A program made the translations under genes and the position numbers. A stretch of 25,717 nucleotides of DNA from Psammoneis japonica (taxonomy: Eukaryota), in NCBI GenBank assembly GCA_008632985.1, contig QPGO01000024.1, positions 697,848 to 723,564 on the forward strand, in the 5' to 3' direction. Below the pieces are notes generated by a model. That model was not told the origin of the DNA, ran no database searches, and worked only from the letters and a program-made list of their open reading frames with translations. Numbering within the stretch: the stretch's first letter is position 1; each line of letters opens with the position of its first letter. Of this stretch, positions 118-15,599 are shown piece by piece.

Positions 118-1230
118 TCATTCAATCTTTCGAATGGTGTCTTCCAGTTTCTTTTTGCCACTCACAACGTCCTCCCACTGTCCAAAGTCGACTAATGAAA
201 AATCAAAACCGCTCCTTGCCACCTCCTCGAGATACCGCGACAATCCCACCAACTCCACATCACGCTTGCCTCGAGACTTTTTTCGAAAGTACGCCGTCAC
301 TTTGAGACCGCTATTCAAATTGAGTGCAAAATTTCGAGACAAGTCATCCAAATGAATGGTATTTTTCCCAGACCACTGGGGAAACTTGGTCCAGATGATT
401 TGAAGAGGCTTGACGTGATGCTTCAAACTCGAGCCGTCTCTTTTCTGAGACTTGATTGCAAACATGCTAGTCTTGTCCAACACAAAGCAAAACTTGTATC
501 CAGCGTTTGTCAACATACCGAGTTCTGTAAGCTTCGTTTCTAGCCATCGCCAAGAGGTCTGAGACCAAACGACCAGGTCGTAGTTGCAATAGGCTGTAGT
601 GAGAAACTCGTCCATAAATGGACGCTTCATACGAGCTGCAGCAGAAGCTAAGTTGTGATCTTGTTCTTGTTGAAGACTTCTACTGGAAAAGTCCAGCAAT
701 GTGTGATCCAGATCCAGAACCATTAGCGGTTTGTTTGGCCTAGGCGGATTCATAATGTGCACCGTTGTGGATTCGGTAAATTTCTTCAAGTTCTCGCCGT
801 TTGCCACGTGGTTGATCCACTCTTCCGAACCAGCCGAGAAGTCAAGCTCAAAGTCATCAATTACGTCCGGGAGATCATCCTTGTCGGAAGGATCCACAAA
901 GATATGCTCTTCTGGTGTACCCATTAATATAAAAGAATGTGTAATTGTCGGTCCACCGGCCTTCTTTGGTTGGCGAAGTTGAGCCAGTTCCACCTGATCT
1001 GTCAATGTCTGCTTCTTCGCAGCCATGGATAAACCAACGAGTTTTTGTCGTTTGGGCAAAACACCTGTTTGATCTGTAATCATAGATTTGACTTGGCCAA
1101 TTGTGGTAGAGGGTGATAGATCAGACAACGTGATGCGTTCTTTGCCCCACTTGGCGACTAGCGTAATGCTCGTGGGCGGCGAAGCGTTGACGGCGTCATT
1201 CATGACTTCTTCCTCTTTGTTTTCAGCCAT
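118..1230 (-). CDS. UBLCP1: Ubiquitin-like domain-containing CTD phosphatase 1 (proteasome-associated HAD phosphatase), 370 aa
   Basis: N-terminal ubiquitin-like domain (KWGKE...TIGQVKSMITDQTGVLPKRQKLVGL...LMGTPEE) followed by an FCP/NIF phosphatase domain with the DxDxT motif (LMVLDLDHTL), KRPFMDEFL, VWSQTS and TIHLDDLSRNF. Start placed at ATG 1230 (MAENKEE); the upstream part of the ORF-track call looks non-coding. Confidence 0.92.
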   Translation of the reverse strand: MAENKEEEVMNDAVNASPPTSITLVAKWGKERITLSDLSPSTTIGQVKSMITDQTGVLPKRQKLVGLSMAAKKQTLTDQVELAQLRQPKKAGGPTITHSFILMGTPEEHIFVDPSDKDDLPDVIDDFELDFSAGSEEWINHVANGENLKKFTESTTVHIMNPPRPNKPLMVLDLDHTLLDFSSRSLQQEQDHNLASAAARMKRPFMDEFLTTAYCNYDLVVWSQTSWRWLETKLTELGMLTNAGYKFCFVLDKTSMFAIKSQKRDGSSLKHHVKPLQIIWTKFPQWSGKNTIHLDDLSRNFALNLNSGLKVTAYFRKKSRGKRDVELVGLSRYLEEVARSGFDFSLVDFGQWEDVVSGKKKLEDTIRKIE

Positions 1231-1686
1231 TTTCGTCCATGAGTTCGACGTCAAAACGTGTATATGGGTCGACCAGTAGCAAAAAGATGGATTTGGACTT
1301 GGAAGTTGAGGTGATGAATGGCAAATGACATTGGTTGATGCGTTGTCGTTTCTTGTCGTTGCATCGGTCGCATCATGCGAACAAATTCTCAGCGAAAACC
1401 CTAACCCTACTGCGCAGCGAGTCACATAACATTCTATTCGCTCTATCTCATCTCTCACTACTGTATGGAAATAGACAATGAGTAAGGCCAAATTTATCTG
1501 TAGCTACAAGCACGAGAAGCTTCTTGCGTCGACAAGCGAAGTAAAGCACAAGAACTGCTTCAACTTTACATAAACACCATACTGTGAACTGGCTAGTAGA
1601 TGCAACTATCTTTTGTAACAAAGTTCTAATGCTAAATATTTCTTCCGTTCTGTCTGTCAGGCTTGCCGAAGTCTTATCCAGAGTTT

Positions 1687-3646
1687 TCACATGTCTTTCC
1701 GTTCATTCTTTACTGTCTGGCTTCTTAAATTCTTGGTTACTAAGAATCCAATGAAGAGAAGAACTAGTAGAAGAGCGCAGTTGTCCCCAAAGCGTGAGTC
1801 GGAAACAACTCTAGGAAGGCTAGACTCATCTACTTGCAACCTCCTTCCGAGAGCAAAGCGCGTGCTTGGAATTCCTTCATCTGGCCAGTACCACGTAGTG
1901 AGGAATTTGAGTATGAGTTCTCTGTCCCAATTTGCCATCTTGTTGTCGCGCCAACACGCTGGGCACATTTTGCGGGTTGGAAACTTGGAGGAAAGAATCT
2001 CTTGGTCGGAAACTTCTCGTCCCTCCCTTGCTGCGCTCTCTTTCATGAGACGAGCATTCACACTATTGTGCACTTCCCACAGCCACATTGGGAGTTCCTT
2101 CTGAAGCTTGTCAGATGCCAACGGATCACTTCCGTCGTTTCTAGGTGCTAGACTTGGCATGATACCCAGAAGTCGATGGCAATGGTCATGTCCGCAATTC
2201 TGATACATGTCTTTGAAGTTGAATCGGCAGACATCGCATGGAAAGAATTGAATGATGAATCTTGTTATGATCTGAGCTACATCTCGAGGAGACGTCAATG
2301 AACCAGATCGGAAGCCGTAGACCTGCTGGCTCGGGAGAGTGGAACCGATGGTCAATATGTGAAACAAATCCCACAACCCGCAAGTCAAGCCCATGCCTCG
2401 CTCTCCGTGAGTGCATGCTTCAGTCCACTTGCTGTTCTCTCGAATCAAATGTACCGCGTTGGTTGATGCTACCTTTCCAAGTGGCACATCACCTCCTAAT
2501 CCCAGTACAACGTGTCGTTGCTGTGGCGCTACCAAACCGCCCCACAAGCCTCCATTTGCATCAGTTGCCTGATGCTTTTCCACAAGAGTAACGAGCTTTA
2601 TCGTACCGTTGACAATTCCAGCCATATTGTCTCGTACGTCGGCAACCAAACCGGTACGGACATGCCAAGAGCGTGGCGTCGCCCAGTCAAACAAGTCAAG
2701 GAAGTCCTTAAGAGCAAGAGCCCGCCGATTGCTCAAAGTGTTTTGCTGATCAATGAAAACTGCGTTCTTGAGAACATACGCCAAGCTGGCTGCTGCATTG
2801 TGGTAGCGCTCATTCGTGTTGGACCGATATTGGTGCCATTTCAGCTTCATGTTTGCGGCCTCTTTCCCCTTGAGAATCAAGCTCTTGTTGAACTCTCTTT
2901 CATCAGCACTATCAGTAAAGTTGAAGCTCTGGATATCCTTGTCTTCGTGAGCTAATGTGATTTCAAGTGCTTCTGCTATACTGTCGGCAGTCATGGGCTG
3001 CTGATTGGTTGGGTTTAGTTCGATGCCCTCCTCTTCCCAGGGCAATGAGCCAACAGGCCATCCATATACAATTGGGAAGCCATTTATCCCATAGGCCCGA
3101 CAAAGGGGCCGATACAAAGCGCAGGAGACTGCATGGAATTCGACTTGTGTTTCAATTGTTCGACGAGTAACTTCACGTGCGATATCAACATACTCGTACT
3201 TGAAGTGCTTACAGTGCCTACAAACAAAAGATGTATTTCAAAATGTGAGTTTTCTCGGTGAGGTGGATGAAAACAAAAACGACATCGAGCAAATACAATA
3301 CTTACGGACAATATGGCGAGTAGAACTCTACAACGTGTGCGGTTTTTGCCGTGTCAAGGTCAAGAAATACCAACTCCTCATCCTCGGGGGCGTCCTTGTC
3401 AAGGTCTACGATCGACCGTTCACCGGTGTCAATGAGGCTATATTGCATGTCGGTTTTCTCTTTCTTTGGTTTTTCAAGAGAATTTGCATTGGAGTCTGTC
3501 CACTCGGGCTTCAGGTAATAATACTCCTGGACTGGCTCCGAGTTTTCCTCATCATCCAAATAGAACATCTGTGCAAGCTCGTCATCGGTAAAGTCGTGAG
3601 AGTAATCGCCAAGTTCATCTTCTTCTTCTTTTCGGTCTTTCGACAT
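1687..3646 (-). CDS. Quiescin/QSOX-like sulfhydryl oxidase (thioredoxin + Erv/ALR FAD domain, C-terminal TM helix); exons 3646-3306 and 3217-1687
   Basis: An 88-nt GTAAG...TTTGTAG intron (3305-3218) joins VEFYSPYC-P to HCKHF and rebuilds the thioredoxin CPHC motif in frame with the 1687-3117 ORF. Erv motifs: GLTCGLWDLFHILT, FFPCDVCRFNF, WLWEVHNSVNARL, FPTRKMCPAC. Hydrophobic ALLLVLLFIGFLV near the C-terminus. The start codon (aaaaATG at 3646) is uncertain. Confidence 0.85.
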
Positions 3647-3782
3647 TTTTGGGGGGAGGGAGCAGTTTGAGATGACCTGTGAATCGTTACAGCTGAACCG
3701 CACGAGTCACTGCGGAATGAAAGGCTCGCGACTGGATCAGATAATCCAGTGTTGGAATACCTCTCGAGCAAAGCGACTAGGG

Positions 3783-3800
3783 CTAGCTACATGTAGCTAG
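3783..3800. repeat. Perfect 18-bp palindrome CTAGCTACATGTAGCTAG
   Basis: The sequence equals its own reverse complement. It lies in a CTAG-rich tract upstream of the QSOX-like gene. Confidence 0.9.
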
Positions 3801-4109
3801 AAGTGCTTGTAGTCTTGACCACAACGCTAATCGATGTTAATCCCGACACCCCAACATGCGTCTTCTCAACTGACTGCGATGGGATGGATGGAGAAATCTG
3901 AAAATCAAAAATCCAACGCACCGACTATGTGGGAAAAAAGGAAAAACAGGACTGGTTGTGTCGTGAAACGCGATCTTCCGCTATATTCAATAAATCGGTT
4001 CGTGTATATGGATACAGCACATCTTCTGTGCTGTGCACTGTGCACTGACGTAGAATCAGTACTGGCGCCTACAGAGCATACTATAGACCGAAGTACACGT
4101 CACGCGTGG

Positions 4110-4158
4110 TCGTGGGTAGTCGTGGTATTGATCGTACCTGGTCGTACTTGTAGTCGTA
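4110..4158. repeat. Array of five TCGT(G/A) motifs with 10/12/10/12-bp spacing
   Basis: TCGT begins at 4110, 4120, 4132, 4142 and 4154. Confidence 0.6.
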
Positions 4159-4297
4159 GAAAAGCAACGGAGGCACTGCGCTCACCAGAATTGAGAGTCG
4201 CTCGTCGAAACGCGAACGAGTGAAGCACGGCGCGATACCACTGTAGACAATGATGAACAACGCTATGTATTTCTATGTATTGGTAAGTCCTGTCCTC

Positions 4298-6406
4298 TTA
4301 CAGTTTTGCCATATCGAATGTAGGCTTGTGATTGACACCCTTGTTGCACGTCCTGAACTTTGACAGGGGCCCAGAATTCTCTTGCAAAAAACAATCAACC
4401 TTGCCGTCGCAGCAGTCGTCAAGGCACTGTACGACCCTAGCGGCTCGATATGCAAAGCTTTTGATAGGATCTTCCAAGGACTTACCGGCGCGCACCTGAT
4501 CTTTCACGTCCTGGCATGCATCCACAAATACCTGAACCTTGGTAGCAGCGTCCTTGGTGGATTTAAATTCAGATTGGTGGTCACGATCAAACTGTACGAC
4601 GGCATCACCTGTGGACTTGGTTTTTTTGGTGTTCCTTTCATCTTGAGCTGGGTCAGTAGCAGCTCGCTTCTCCCTTGCACTGTTGGCATTGGTGAGTACT
4701 TCAAAAGTTGTAGACTGTGCAGCACGCACTCTTTCTGCAGCCGACTTGTCGTGCATTCGCATCACCACCTCTGCCTTGCTAGATCCAAGCTCACGAATCA
4801 AGAACTGCTTCATTTCTTCTTCATCAGACAAGTCCGGGGTGTATGATGTAGCTTTTGTGAACAGCTGCTTGACAGTCAATAAGTTGCTCTGCTGCACACC
4901 AAGCAGTTCCGTCACGCACCAATCAGCAAGTTCTGGTAGAGGCTTGCGGTACCTGGCAGAGTCTACCATGACGGATGCAAATGAAGAAAGATGCTTCATA
5001 TGGATGGGCTCCCATTTACCAACACGGTGAGCATCCTTGTCCTTTTCCCTATCAACTAGAGCCTTCAGTGTGCCACTGTCAGAAAGGTAAGTCGCGGCAC
5101 TTGACACATTCTTGTGACGAGCGCTCAGCAACATGTTCGCTTCGGCCATCTCACCCAGCCGCCCTCCGTCACGCGTAGAGCCCCATTCAGCAAACGCAAA
5201 GCCAGTCCTTCGAAGAATGTGTGTTCCAATGATTTCAGTTGACATCTTGTCAATGTCTCTTCCCAGAATGGTTTCGCAAGCAAACTTGAAAAAATCCAGG
5301 AGCGAGTCGCATGGAAAATTTTCGTCGTGATGTTCCTTGTTGAGCTCCAACTCGTCTCTAGTGGGAAACAACTTGCCCGACTTGATGCCAGAATAATGCA
5401 TCCAAAGGAGAATGGCAATAGTTCCTGAGAATTCAGGACATTCTTCATCGTCCCAAATCATGAAATGAAGATCCTTCTCGTCACGCTTGCCACGGATTTT
5501 GGTGCAGAGACCCTTGACGGCATTTTCCGACACTTGGAAGTACTCGGTGACAAACTTTTCAACCGTCATCTCCAAAACTTCTTCACAGCGTAGAAATGAC
5601 TTTGTACCAACAACAATGATAGTCCAAAGCATTAGATGATGCTTGTCATTATGTGACAAACAGCAGTCTCGAATAGCCCGCACCTCGCCCGGCAAGAATG
5701 CAAAAGCACTTCTAGCTTCGCAGCAGTTTGATGCGCAGTCTTGCCATTGGTCAATTGCAGCCTTGAAATCTTCATGTTTGGTGGCATTTCCACGACGCCA
5801 GAAATGGGGATCACCAGGGTGTTTGCGGCATCCAGTGCCCTTTCGGGCTTCCTCCTCGCCAATCTCATGACAAGCAGTGCACATTTCTCGGTGTTCGCCA
5901 TTGGTCGTTTCGCAGTGCTTGTGAAGCTTGCTCATGGCAGTGCGGAAGAGCCCAATGGAAGAATGACCTTTCCAATCACCAATGCAGGTGATAGGGTTTC
6001 CATACCGGTCCTTTACAGGAGCGTTCGTGCGGTTGTGAAGTAGTGGTTCGCCTTTTTGTTTTGTCCTGAACTGAGCAAACTGGATTGCTGCATCCAAATT
6101 CGAAGGAAAAGGATCTGATGGACACAAGTCACGTGCCGGCAGCATGGCACTTTCAGAATCATCAATCAGGTAGCAGAAGTCACGAAAAAGCCTCCATATG
6201 GGTTCATGCCGTGCAATAGAACTAGTCGCAACAGCGTCAGTGCCCACTTCGCCGGTCTTTTTGTTCTTTCCTGTAATTGCAAGTTTTGGTGACGTTGTGT
6301 CAAGCTTGTACTTCTTCAGTGTCTTATTCAAGCTCGACTCACCAAGAGAGCGGGTTTGCTGCGTTATTTTGAATCCGCCGCCCTTCAAAATAACGTAAGA
6401 TGTCAT
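4298..6406 (-). CDS. Tyrosine recombinase/integrase of Crypton type, 702 aa from first ATG
   Basis: Catalytic residues in canonical order: FLR(C)EE (Arg, codon 5590-5588), KIRGKRD (Lys), GTHILRRTG (HxxR), SARHK (His), AATYL (Tyr, TAC at 5089-5087). Also a CxxC...CxxH cluster upstream. The ORF track starts at a TTG (6505); the first ATG is at 6406. Confidence 0.85.
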   Translation of the reverse strand: MTSYVILKGGGFKITQQTRSLGESSLNKTLKKYKLDTTSPKLAITGKNKKTGEVGTDAVATSSIARHEPIWRLFRDFCYLIDDSESAMLPARDLCPSDPFPSNLDAAIQFAQFRTKQKGEPLLHNRTNAPVKDRYGNPITCIGDWKGHSSIGLFRTAMSKLHKHCETTNGEHREMCTACHEIGEEEARKGTGCRKHPGDPHFWRRGNATKHEDFKAAIDQWQDCASNCCEARSAFAFLPGEVRAIRDCCLSHNDKHHLMLWTIIVVGTKSFLRCEEVLEMTVEKFVTEYFQVSENAVKGLCTKIRGKRDEKDLHFMIWDDEECPEFSGTIAILLWMHYSGIKSGKLFPTRDELELNKEHHDENFPCDSLLDFFKFACETILGRDIDKMSTEIIGTHILRRTGFAFAEWGSTRDGGRLGEMAEANMLLSARHKNVSSAATYLSDSGTLKALVDREKDKDAHRVGKWEPIHMKHLSSFASVMVDSARYRKPLPELADWCVTELLGVQQSNLLTVKQLFTKATSYTPDLSDEEEMKQFLIRELGSSKAEVVMRMHDKSAAERVRAAQSTTFEVLTNANSAREKRAATDPAQDERNTKKTKSTGDAVVQFDRDHQSEFKSTKDAATKVQVFVDACQDVKDQVRAGKSLEDPIKSFAYRAARVVQCLDDCCDGKVDCFLQENSGPLSKFRTCNKGVNHKPTFDMAKL

Positions 6407-6545
6407 CGTCGAGTGTGTGTTTTCTCTCTCGCGAACGAGAAATGCGAGTTTTTGATGATTTTCTTTTGGCGCGCCCCTCGAGTTTTCGAATGACCCTTTG
6501 GACAAAGCTACTTAGGGACGAAAGAAAGTCAAAAATTACTTATCA

Positions 6546-6592
6546 GTGCACCGCTGTGCACCGGAAACTATGCCAGTGCACTTGAAGTGCAC
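6546..6592. repeat. Array of four GTGCAC palindromes (two more at 4033 and 4040)
   Basis: GTGCAC begins at 6546, 6556, 6576 and 6587 (spacing 10, 20, 11). Confidence 0.75.
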
Positions 6593-6792
6593 CGCCCCCT
6601 TCAACTAAGCACACGTCACTATCTCAAAATATCACCCCCCCTCTGGTGCCTATAGATACACTTGTCGCTCCGTCCGTTCGGAAACGCTATCGCGCACCGC
6701 ATGCAAGCACTCAATCAGGCACGCGGATTGCGTATTGCGTTGCGTTGCGCTTATCTTTACCCGCATGGGCACTGCCAGTTTCGTCATGATTC

Positions 6793-7956
6793 ATGATGTC
6801 CTTTCGATTCCTAGTTTCGATACTGAACACACTCTCTTGCTTTGGGTTGGTGAACGCGATTGAAAAGGTACGCGTAGTCTAACCGGAAGCAACAGGATTC
6901 CCAATCCCAACGAGGCACAGTAGCGGCTCAATTTCGATCCACGGAGCATGCAGGATACGCTCATGTTTTTTCGTTGTCGTTTCTTTTAAGGTTATGCCCG
7001 GCCACACATTGCAAAATGATCATTACAGCCCATTGCCTCATACATACATTGCGATGTCGGAACTTCCGGAATCATTCTTGGCGCCTTTTTTGACTGCATC
7101 GAGGAATCAACACATTCCTCAGTACTGTGGTTCTTGTTGGGCTCACTCGTCCACTAGCTCCTTGTCTGATCGATTAAATATCGCACGTAACTCAACACAT
7201 GGTCCAGAGATCAATCTTTCTATCCAGTTCCTCTTGAATTGTGGAGCAGAAATTGCAGGCTCTTGTCAAGGCGGATCAGCCACGGGAGCATACGAGTTTG
7301 TGAAAAAGAAAGGCTTCATCCCATACGACACGTGTCAGCCGTACATTGCGTGCTCCTCTGATTCTACCAATGGCTTTTGCAGTTTTGTTGACACGTCGTG
7401 CTCTCCACTTAATATCTGTCGAACGTGTACAAATCCGTCAAAGGGCGGAAAGTGTGTTGCGATCGCAAGGTTTCCCAACGCGACGGTCGCTGAGTATGGC
7501 ACTTATCACAATGATATTCACGCCATAATGGCAGAGATCTATGCGAGAGGTCCGGTGAAGGCTTCTATCAATGGCAAACAAATCGAGGCCTACAAGGGAG
7601 GTATCATTTATGATGATCCTGCCTTGAGGAATATGACACATAATCACGGTGTATCAATTGTTGGCTGGGGCAAAGAAAAGTCAACCAGCGTACAGTTCTG
7701 GATAGTCCGTAATTCTTGGGGTCAATATTGGGGTGAGATGGGTTTCTTTCGGGTTGAGCTCGGGAAAAATCTTCTTGGAATCGAAAACCACATTGCCTGG
7801 GCGACGCCGGGCTTTTATTCCACAAGCAATTTCCCCTGTGACGAGGATGGAAAGAATTGTGAGCAATGGCAATATGCCAAATACACCGATCCCTCTGCAA
7901 ATCTTGCCGCTGTGAAACGGCGTCTCCGGCTAGATCGAAAGCGAGGATTAGGATAG
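6793..7956 (+). CDS. Cathepsin Z/X-like papain-family (C1A) cysteine protease; exons 6793-6867 and 6991-7956
   Basis: RNQHIPQYCGSCWAH (cathepsin Z/X HIP mini-loop, oxyanion Gln and catalytic Cys), NHGVSIVGWG (His), VRNSWGQYWGEMGFFR (Asn). Exon 1 encodes a signal-peptide-like MMSFRFLVSILNTLSCFGLVNA-IEK, joined by a phase-0 GTACGC...TTTTAAG intron (6868-6990). Confidence 0.92.
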
Positions 7957-8172
7957 CTACCAGGCAGAGAGAAGACGAGGCAAACCATCGCTTGCCTACT
8001 CTCTCTACTAGCTAGCTAGTAGCTAGAGTAGAGACCTACCTCCTGATCCACAAGGTTCGGACAGATCGCCAGACGTGGATGATTACTGCGTTCCGCGTGG
8101 TATGCTATCCGCAATCATTCTTAATCATCGCATCAAACATCGAATCTTTCCTTCCCTGATGTAGTGGCAGTC

Positions 8173-13646: not shown

Positions 13647-15599
13647 CTAGAGTGCTCGTATTGCGTCGTCGCAGTTTGGAATGAACCTTTCGCCCAGCTC
13701 GGTCAGGAGCACTCTAGAAGCTCGTAGCGACTTCTTCACACTACTGACCCATTTCCCCGCCGCTCTATCTTTCTGTGCATCATTGAGCAGATCCGTTGGA
13801 TCGCCACTTAAAAATTCATCATCAAGAATGCCTTCGCCCATAAAGGCGTTTATGAACATGTCCACGAAATCGGTCGCACAGAAACTGCCCATTCTGCCAA
13901 GCTTTTCCGAGAAGAAGACAGCCACGTCGTTATTGATGTTCGACCCTCTGCTCCCAATGATCTCGTTCCATTTCATGGCTTGCTGTAAGAGGCTCAACGA
14001 AACAAGGGCATCTCCTGGGTCCAGAATCCTTTTTTCGCCTCTAACTATTTTGGCACGAGAGTTGCTTAAATACCGTTCAAGTTTCTCGTCACCGAAGGGC
14101 TTCTTCGAAGAATCAATTTGTTTGAGTAAGTTGTTGAGACACCGCCTGTAGTTGCAGGTCACTTCAGCAAAGCCGATGGGGAATGGTCCTTTCGTTGTTT
14201 CACGGTCGGAATCACGCTTGCAGTCGACGCGAGGAAAAGATTTGCCCTCCCTTGTGATGAAAACAGTTGAATTCTTCAGACGTTCCTCAATTTCATCCGG
14301 AGTGATCGTTCCGTTGCTATCCTGAATAAGCAATGCAGCACATGCCGCTACGTGTGGTGAAGCCATCGAAGTTCCGCTTCTAGTGTTAGCGCCACCTCCA
14401 AGTTTCGAACCCATGATTGAGTTCCCTGGGGCAAAAAGATCAGTCTCCATGTTGCTGTTGGTGAAGAAGGAAGGGCTGTCGTCATCATTCGATGACGCAA
14501 CGGCAATCACTTGACTCAAGCAGCCGGGCCATCCAATTTCAGTTGTGCTCCCTTCGTTTCCTGTCGATGCAAAAGCAATCACTCCCTTATTGCGAAGAGT
14601 GTTGATCGCTTCTGCTCCCATCCTGCCGAATGATGTTGAAAAATCGCAAACGCCAGCGAATTGAGTGAACGTACCAACGCTCATGTTGATTATGTTTACT
14701 CCAAGCTGTGGGTTAGCAATAAGATAGTCCAAAGCAGCAACTATTTCTGAAGCAAAGAAGAAGAAACCTTCTCTGTTTGTCACTTTAATAGCAACAATAT
14801 TTGCATCGGGAGCCTATTGCCACAGAACAAGTGGAGGGCACGATAGCTTAGAAAAGCAAACGATAAACATTGCACAATTCAAAAAATTTGATAAGCTTAC
14901 CACTCCAACAGGTGCCTGTACCCCATTCGACGAAATGATGGAAGCAACGTGCGTCCCATGTCCATCGTCGTCTTCAGCAGCGCCCTTACCGAATTGTCGG
15001 TCGGAGCCGTTGGGACAATCGCCAGAACCATTCACGGTGCCGTCGTCGTCAAGAAAGCAAGCTTCGTGGATTAAGGTACCTTTACCCACCAAGTCTGGAT
15101 GGTCAGAATCATATCCTGAGTCAAGTACAGCGACAACAACACCATCTCCTCTATTTCCAACCTTCTGTCGCTGATCAGCATTTATGAGTGGCACGCTCTG
15201 AGCGAGCGAAACGGTTCCACCAACGTCCAAATCGACCATGGCAACATTTGGGTGTTTTTCGAGAGCTTTTACTGTGTCTTCGTCTTTGGTTGTAAGTACA
15301 AAACCCGCAACATTTTTGAACCTGTGCTTGACCTTAAACTTTCCCCGTGGGAGTTTTGAAATTACGTCTTCTTGTATTTGCTTGATGCTGCCGCTGTCAT
15401 GGAGGAATCCCGGGATGTCGACTCCTCCACCAGTTCTGCCTCTGAGGGCTACAATTAGCTGAGTGTTGCCTCTTCTCTTCAAAGAACGACGTACTTCAGG
15501 GGCTGCCTTTTTCTCAACAGCAATAGACTGATCCAATGAGTGAAAAAGAGCAAACGCAGTCAAAGCAAAGGCGGCAACTCTTCCCGGGTAGAGCTTCAT
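13647..15599 (-). CDS. Secreted subtilisin-like serine protease (S8), 621 aa; exons 15599-14901 and 14813-13647
   Basis: Signal peptide, I9-like propeptide, catalytic triad VAVLDSG / HGTHVAS / SGTSMASPHVA and oxyanion STGNEG. An 87-nt phase-0 GTAAG...AATAG intron (14900-14814) joins APVGV to APDANIVAIKV. Confidence 0.92.

Follow-up and report, generated by a model that had tools for sequence, protein, structure and literature searches.

The window analysed here, 25,717 nucleotides of contig QPGO01000024.1 from the pennate diatom Psammoneis japonica, contained a transposon of the Crypton type, encoding a tyrosine recombinase (YR) and belonging to a recently active family. This identification, already proposed in a preliminary description made from the sequence alone, was supported by the protein fold, the copy number, a terminal GATAC, empty targets and an element-free allele. 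Comparison of the copies pointed to a further conclusion, which we consider likely: the family is young and is now being disabled by a host mutation process directed at TpA dinucleotides.

The recombinase, its element and its insertion sites

The element carried one open reading frame (ORF) for a 702-amino-acid protein. No match to Pfam was found with this protein, none of 21 relatives contained a Pfam YR family, and a sequence search of the Protein Data Bank (PDB) gave no useful YR match. An AlphaFold2 model was built from a 21-sequence alignment (mean predicted local distance difference test score, pLDDT, 82). Cre ranked first in Foldseek (E 5e-5), and VIA-align superposed the model on Cre with Z 21.0 and a root-mean-square deviation of 4.0 over 297 residues (model residues 36–442), followed in its ranking by lambda Int, integron Int, Tn1549 Int and XerH. 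The YR fold expected in the preliminary description was thus recovered, with the Pfam profiles silent; since the Pfam and PDB sequence searches were empty, the identity of the recombinase was visible from structure only.

The recombinase family comprised 1765 clusters at 50% identity. Among 124 aligned members (500–900 amino acids each), the catalytic residues R273, K307, H396, R399, H431 and Y440 were kept in 124, 123, 118, 119, 123 and 122, respectively. All six were present in the window copy, where the nucleophile codon was an intact TAC, confirming what had been read from the letters. A Cys/His cluster (C176, C179, C193 and H196, kept in 121, 119, 122 and 116 members) is, judging from its conservation, probably a zinc site. 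The C-terminal domain reached a pLDDT of 51 when modelled alone and had no match in the protein Atlas, and a GCR1_C domain was found in 0 of 21 family members at E 0.1. A second sequence search with a wider alignment returned the identical 20 proteins, with no named oomycete sequence among them; in the best-scoring Atlas clusters for the YR the commonest taxon was Oomycota or Bacillariophyta (score 0.96), a lead only. Among 20 clusters inspected, a single one bore an organism name, that of a Bacillariaceae metagenome-assembled genome (MAG). No other ORF of at least 100 amino acids inside the element had a family match, in line with the absence of reverse transcriptase (RT) and gag noted earlier, and an Rfam scan of 3700–7000 gave no match.

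A genome search returned six further copies at 98–99% identity, two more divergent ones (94% and 88%), a half copy (92%) and fragments of greater age. The element was found at ten loci with unrelated flanks, comprising seven young copies 98–99% alike and three older ones (loci L008–L010). Alignments of the copies broke at GATAC on both sides, which moved the bounds from the 4091–6619 first proposed to 4011–6659; the length was 2647 bp in L002, L004, L005 and L006. A purine stood directly 5′ of the left GATAC in all seven listed copies with an intact left end. The two ends were not complementary, and no terminal inverted repeats were present. An open frame with all six catalytic residues was retained in four of the seven young copies, and the others carried Y440C (L005), a stop codon (L006) or a frameshift (L007). 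Searches with end patterns yielded eight left ends, in addition to the window's variant end, and nine right ends; abundant non-autonomous derivatives were not seen, the end searches having returned 12 and 11 matches.

GTGCAC palindromes were concentrated in the ends: six of the 11 in the window lay within 540 bp of element ends, compared with 0.11 expected, and they are candidate recombinase binding sites. The left end also contained a hairpin, which was changed in four of the seven young copies by three types of event. Its loop, TC in most copies, occurred in the flipped form GA in L004 and L006 and had undergone a 3-bp expansion (to 5 nt) in the window copy, and L003 was cut within the left arm. 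Template switching or recombinase action on the hairpin are possible explanations of these changes.

The older copies L008–L010 were inserted at one and the same position of a ~47-bp repeat, to which twelve matches were found. Empty paralogous targets contained a single core, compared with GATAC at both ends of filled sites; the core of the empty repeats was GATAC in L077, GACAC or GATGC in seven, and altered in four. L009 and L010 occupied different variants of the repeat with different internal regions, indicating that at least two insertions were independent. By eye, in an unscored comparison, the target site was similar to the predicted junction of the element.

The ~47-bp repeat had a G run before it or GGTTATGAGC after it, which we take to play the roles of polypurine tract and primer site. 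It was paired 1.4 kb apart in L053 and in L078. ORFs upstream of the target repeat at three loci gave tblastn matches to Copia RT loci (best E 8e-21) and no match to Pfam. From these sequence features, the repeat appears to behave as a very short Copia-type long terminal repeat (LTR). Loci L053 (4744–4790 and 8822–8870) and L076–L087 were Copia-type elements with such ~47-bp LTR-like repeats, some of them 1.4-kb units in which the repeat was paired, and L078 retained, at 150–173, a 23-bp piece of the Crypton left end in this LTR position, possibly a deletion or excision scar.

Contigs of public DNA run X1 differed from the window at four host positions, and one of them joined 3986 to 6720, giving an allele without the element. 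The family had therefore moved recently, and the insertion locus was polymorphic.

Mutation at TpA and its possible causes

Substitutions were scored against the majority base of the seven young copies, with end columns and gaps excluded. A>G at TpA on either strand made up 81 of the 106 substitutions across these copies and 27 of the 30 in the window copy. With each derived allele counted once, 52 of 71 were of this type, and 52 of 216 TpA adenines were changed versus 5 of 1160 other adenines (P 1e-38). At 15 of the 37 mutated TpA sites, CA was found in some copies and TG in others, with no TA>CG doubles. The load per young copy ranged from 1 to 27, the window copy being the most mutated, and its recombinase had 10 tyrosines versus 21–22 in the least-mutated copies. 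Five of nine family-conserved tyrosine columns were Cys or His in the window copy, including Y67, Y172 and Y366, which are kept by 87–94% of members. Among the listed differences between X1 or X2 contigs and the window, 24 of 40 restored TpA. These contigs and the family-conserved tyrosines indicated that the direction of change was loss of TpA. The preliminary description, in which the TpA changes went unnoticed, implied that a complete catalytic set meant an intact copy. This was not supported, and the window copy is probably impaired in spite of the six residues.

Within the ORF, the rate per site and copy was 0.111 for TAC, 0.082 for TAT, 0.029 for TAG and 0.014 for TAA. No strand bias was left after context correction (49 changes versus 45.4 expected on one strand and 30 versus 33.6 on the other), a result that disfavours a route in which a single transcript strand is edited and then copied back. 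The changes appeared to be recurrent, as 127 of 253 TpA site pairs were incompatible with one tree, versus 0 of 3 other pairs.

Older copies had gone further. Seven of 108 TpA and one tyrosine were left in L009 (TpA ratio 0.05), the ends of L009 and L010 were mutated too, and old copies had lost nearly all TpA, ends included, with CpG decay accompanying the loss. Among 30 Copia loci the TpA ratio was 0.09–0.32 in 17 and 0.71–0.80 in the other 13, and 21 of 29 single-copy changes in one young Copia copy were at TpA. The ratio in 12 host ORFs was 0.30–0.62; four host single-nucleotide polymorphisms were seen in all, one of them a TpA loss. In a separate data set, 20 of 22 tyrosines of protein P0019 were changed relative to its cluster-mate P0053 (11 to Cys and 9 to His), the catalytic Tyr included. 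P0019, which was set beside both P0053 and P0057, is a recombinase family member at ~40% identity, and the TpA signature was thus present in another Crypton family as well. Older YR elements of other families at L089 (~1000–5000) and L091 (~2500–5000) formed sharply bounded TpA-free blocks amid normal DNA, and L089 had a 662-codon open frame retaining one Tyr.

The changes were not evenly spread along the young copies, whose ends carried 2 TpA changes versus 28.6 expected (context-corrected). Single-copy TpA changes fell on 27 of 137 sites in the ORF versus 2 of 56 in the ends (P 0.003). Non-TpA substitutions (6 in 514 bp of ends versus 13 in 2109 bp) were not spared there, and general selection on the ends therefore fails to account for the sparing of TpA.

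The ORF was also covered in part by spliced RNA of the opposite strand, represented by two contigs of run X2, which was treated as RNA because it skipped two host introns. The description of the ORF as intronless held for the sense strand and failed for the other, on which two GT-AG introns were seen in this one run. The contigs derived from a less mutated copy than the window. A 170-codon antisense frame opened by the splicing was rejected as a protein, being in register with the sense codons, without a Pfam match and explicable by chance (P 0.21).

The following course of events is suggested. As in the Crypton model (PMC3212892), the recombinase would join the two GATAC cores and release a circle, which may integrate at another RGATAC (R, purine), best at junction-like sites such as the short Copia-type LTR. 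As the comparison of copies showed, inserted copies recurrently acquire A>G at the TpA of either strand (TAC > TAT >> TAG > TAA), mostly within the ORF and seldom at the ends, and old copies have lost nearly every TpA, ends included. The agent might be a host activity that deaminates DNA adenine, or an equivalent one, attracted first to the body of the element where this is silenced or transcribed from both strands. Since such a process destroys tyrosines without making stop codons, an intact catalytic motif or open frame is no proof of activity in this genome.

Several points weigh against this account. The X1 allele without the element also lacked 84 bp of flank, so the expectation of an empty-site allele was borne out as to absence of the element, and not as a clean empty site. 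The back-joint of a circle was absent from contigs of three runs (contigs drop rare forms), no head-to-tail copies occurred among the left and right ends found in the genome, so that the circle step is taken over from the published model. The antisense RNA consisted of two contigs from one run, with its strand taken from splice signals alone, and its cover ended at 5597, while TpA changes extended to 6245. Incompatible site pairs can arise, too, when copies undergo gene conversion or are mixed in assembly. L001 and L002 shared 10 changes versus 6.5 expected (P 0.03), and some changes may predate a jump. A deaminase search of the genome gave nine matches, none tied to the mutations, and no mutator enzyme was identified among them. 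Two of these matches we take, from their motifs, to be a TadA-like gene (at L094) and a dCMP-deaminase-like gene. A deaminase gene pair occurred on two contigs (L092–L095 and L093/L098; C41 and C317) with identical scores, by duplication or as allelic contigs.

A passive by-product of chromatin, by which silenced (methylated) DNA is mis-repaired or mis-copied at TpA without a guide RNA or a dedicated enzyme, agrees with a host-directed process except on targeting; it is possible, though we doubt it. TpA-poor blocks spanning whole repeat islands of several kb, and the parallel CpG decay of old copies, would be expected from it. However, load was independent of neighbourhood: the most-mutated young copy (27 changes) lay between host genes with ordinary TpA, and copies with one TpA-erased flank had 4–19. 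The strict TpA and TAY (Y, pyrimidine) preference moreover looks enzymatic.

A more specific form of the host-directed process, put forward as a speculation, is an RNA-guided DNA adenine editor acting as a diatom genome defence. Where the sense transcripts and the spliced antisense RNA overlap, they would guide A>G editing at TAY to the ORF, which would be transcribed from both strands, and the promoter ends would initially escape. If this were true, the copies of the Crypton family would record the process over time in a natural series and give the first handle on its targeting.

The same element and mutator might also act with even targeting, the ends looking spared since copies keep jumping with recombinase supplied in trans and only intact TpA end motifs survive. 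In its favour, the changes shared by L001 and L002 beyond expectation hint at renewed movement of a mutated copy, and the ends of old copies L009 and L010 were mutated. This explanation is nevertheless unlikely, for it demands that 54 of 56 end sites all be essential, the single-copy changes alone displayed the ORF bias, and the ends were no poorer than the ORF in either non-TpA substitutions or divergence to L008/L009.

Errors of sequencing, polishing or assembly, for which the frequent mixed assembly of repeats and the absence of most window-specific letters from run X1 might speak, are a very improbable source of the TpA differences: the signature was also found in old copies (e.g. L009), in Copia copies, in contigs of a public run (5993, 6015 and 6041) and in P0019 of another collection, with normal TpA in host genes. 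A domesticated single-copy host gene, the alternative named in the preliminary description and suggested by the open frame, full catalytic set and position between host genes, can be dismissed, given ten loci with unrelated flanks, an element-free allele and no sign of purifying selection (64 changes on 106 non-synonymous TpA sites versus 15 on 54 synonymous ones).

Features of the window

Coordinates of the element, its transcripts and its neighbours in the window (strand not assigned where empty)
Feature	Position	Strand	Remarks
Whole Crypton-type element	4011..6659	minus	2649 bp; copy alignments break at a GATAC at each end
Left terminal direct repeat GATAC	4011..4015	plus	copy alignment breakpoint
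Left-end inverted repeat	4014..4034		8-bp arms; copy alignment
Two GTGCAC palindromes, left end	4033..4045		candidate recombinase binding sites, putative function
Four GTGCAC palindromes, right end	6546..6592		candidate recombinase binding sites, putative function
Right terminal direct repeat GATAC	6655..6659	plus	copy alignment breakpoint
Tyrosine recombinase ORF	4298-6406	minus	702 amino acids, internal stops 0
Cre-like core-binding and catalytic domains	5069..6301	minus	residues 36-446; Foldseek and VIA-align
Catalytic set R273, K307, H396, R399, H431, Y440	5087..5590	minus	Y440 codon TAC at 5087-5089
C176/C179/C193/H196 cluster	5819..5881	minus	probable zinc site within the Cre-like region; metal binding suggested by conservation
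C-terminal region with conserved C661, C/H665, C687	4301..4609	minus	conserved in the family; no Pfam family
Tract with the 27 TpA>TpG/CpA changes of the window copy	4410..6245		copy comparison
Spliced RNA antisense to the recombinase ORF	4199..5597	plus	cover by two contigs, run X2
Antisense intron 1	4283..4366	plus	84 nt, GTAAGT...CAG; gap in X2 contigs
Antisense intron 2	5087..5178	plus	92 nt, GTAAGT...TAG; gap in X2 contigs; donor overlaps the Y440 codon
Left flank absent, together with the element, from the X1 allele	3987..4010		24 bp
Right flank absent, together with the element, from the X1 allele	6660..6719		60 bp; one match in the genome assembly
Erv1/Alr-family thiol oxidase gene, host neighbour	1687..3646	minus	transcribed away from the element
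Papain-family (C1A) protease gene, host neighbour	6814..7956	plus	transcribed away from the element

The position between two host genes given in the preliminary description was correct, the neighbours being genes for an Erv1/Alr thiol oxidase and a papain-family protease. For one neighbouring host gene, the closest relatives with a name came from diatoms, led by pennates. The insertion interrupted the short interval (3647–4010 and 6660–6813) separating these divergently transcribed genes and could affect their promoters. 3′ of the protease gene, a simple repeat rich in CTAG/TAG (7990–8035) matched many unrelated contigs of runs X1 and X2. Further along, a subtilase-family gene in two ORF pieces (13647–15599, minus strand) stood beside a LOG/SLOG-family gene and a VPS13 gene; these were ordinary host genes.

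Comparison with known systems

The recombinase resembled Cre, lambda Int, XerH and Tn1549 Int in its core-binding and catalytic fold (Z 21 to Cre over residues 36–446) and in R-K-H-R-H-Y. It differed in its low sequence identity (12%), a C3H cluster (residues 176–196) and ~250 additional C-terminal residues.

With Cryptons the element shared a tyrosine recombinase as mobilising enzyme, without RT, gag or a DDE transposase; the catalytic R-H-R-Y tetrad; a short terminal direct repeat (GATAC), without terminal inverted or long direct repeats; and a target with a single copy of the terminal repeat, at the paralogous LTR-like targets of L008–L010. In the available part of the group description, Crypton terminal direct repeats are 4–6 bp, an excised circular intermediate is proposed and not demonstrated, and transposition was unstudied at that time (PMC3212892).

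The element is probably CryptonS-like, as suggested by its host, size, repeat length and lack of GCR1_C. Like CryptonS of oomycetes and Phaeodactylum tricornutum, as far as the available part of their description goes, it had a stramenopile host and a single YR ORF, a length of ~2.5–3.5 kb, a 5–6-bp terminal direct repeat and a low copy number, and a conserved non-GCR1_C C-terminal region, the conservation here being seen within its own family (Kojima and Jurka 2011, PMC3212892). It differed in its termini, (R)GATAC in place of TATGG (the trait of the CryptonS majority, with listed exceptions), TTACTG or TAATG, or of CTGTAAG in one diatom element (PMC3212892 Additional file 1), and in lacking a C48 peptidase. 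The same part of the source makes no mention of antisense splicing, a hairpin at the end or targeting of LTRs in CryptonS (PMC3212892); it was the sole description of diatom Cryptons found in a search of openly accessible papers. The comparison with CryptonS is one of described traits.

Repeat-induced point mutation (RIP) of fungi consists of repeat-restricted, dinucleotide-specific transitions on both DNA strands, making TpA from CpA. The diatom process was like RIP in being dinucleotide-specific on both DNA strands and apparently repeat-restricted, and unlike RIP in that it destroys TpA and makes no stop codons.

In the openly accessible literature no paper on TpA hypermutation in diatoms was found, and a 2026 preprint on viral inserts of Bigelowiella natans was the only report of such hypermutation (Mettrop et al., bioRxiv 10.64898/2026.01.13.699255). 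In the part of the preprint available, the process consists of A>G and T>C changes restricted to TpA and found on either strand, as here; its de novo rate is ~1000-fold over background and episodic, and it is proposed to reach transposons. Diatoms, stramenopiles, antisense RNA and trinucleotide context are not mentioned in that part. Load was uneven in both systems, between lines there and between copies here. Bigelowiella differs in being a rhizarian with de novo measurement on viral inserts, whereas the present results came from a comparison of copies, with a TAY preference and the ends spared.

Against this background, the family is a new one of a known transposon kind, resolved in unusual detail, and it shows a recently described mutational defence at an early stage. 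Its ends are known exactly, as are a core site and a preferred natural target, and some copies have open frames, so that circle polymerase chain reaction and recombinase assays can be designed directly. The TpA process was caught early, as dead repeats cannot show, and its pattern, in the ORF and not in the ends, constrains how a mutator may be aimed. Compared with the systems above, what is new here is the early, ORF-confined stage of TpA hypermutation, the antisense RNA and the repeated insertion into a short LTR.

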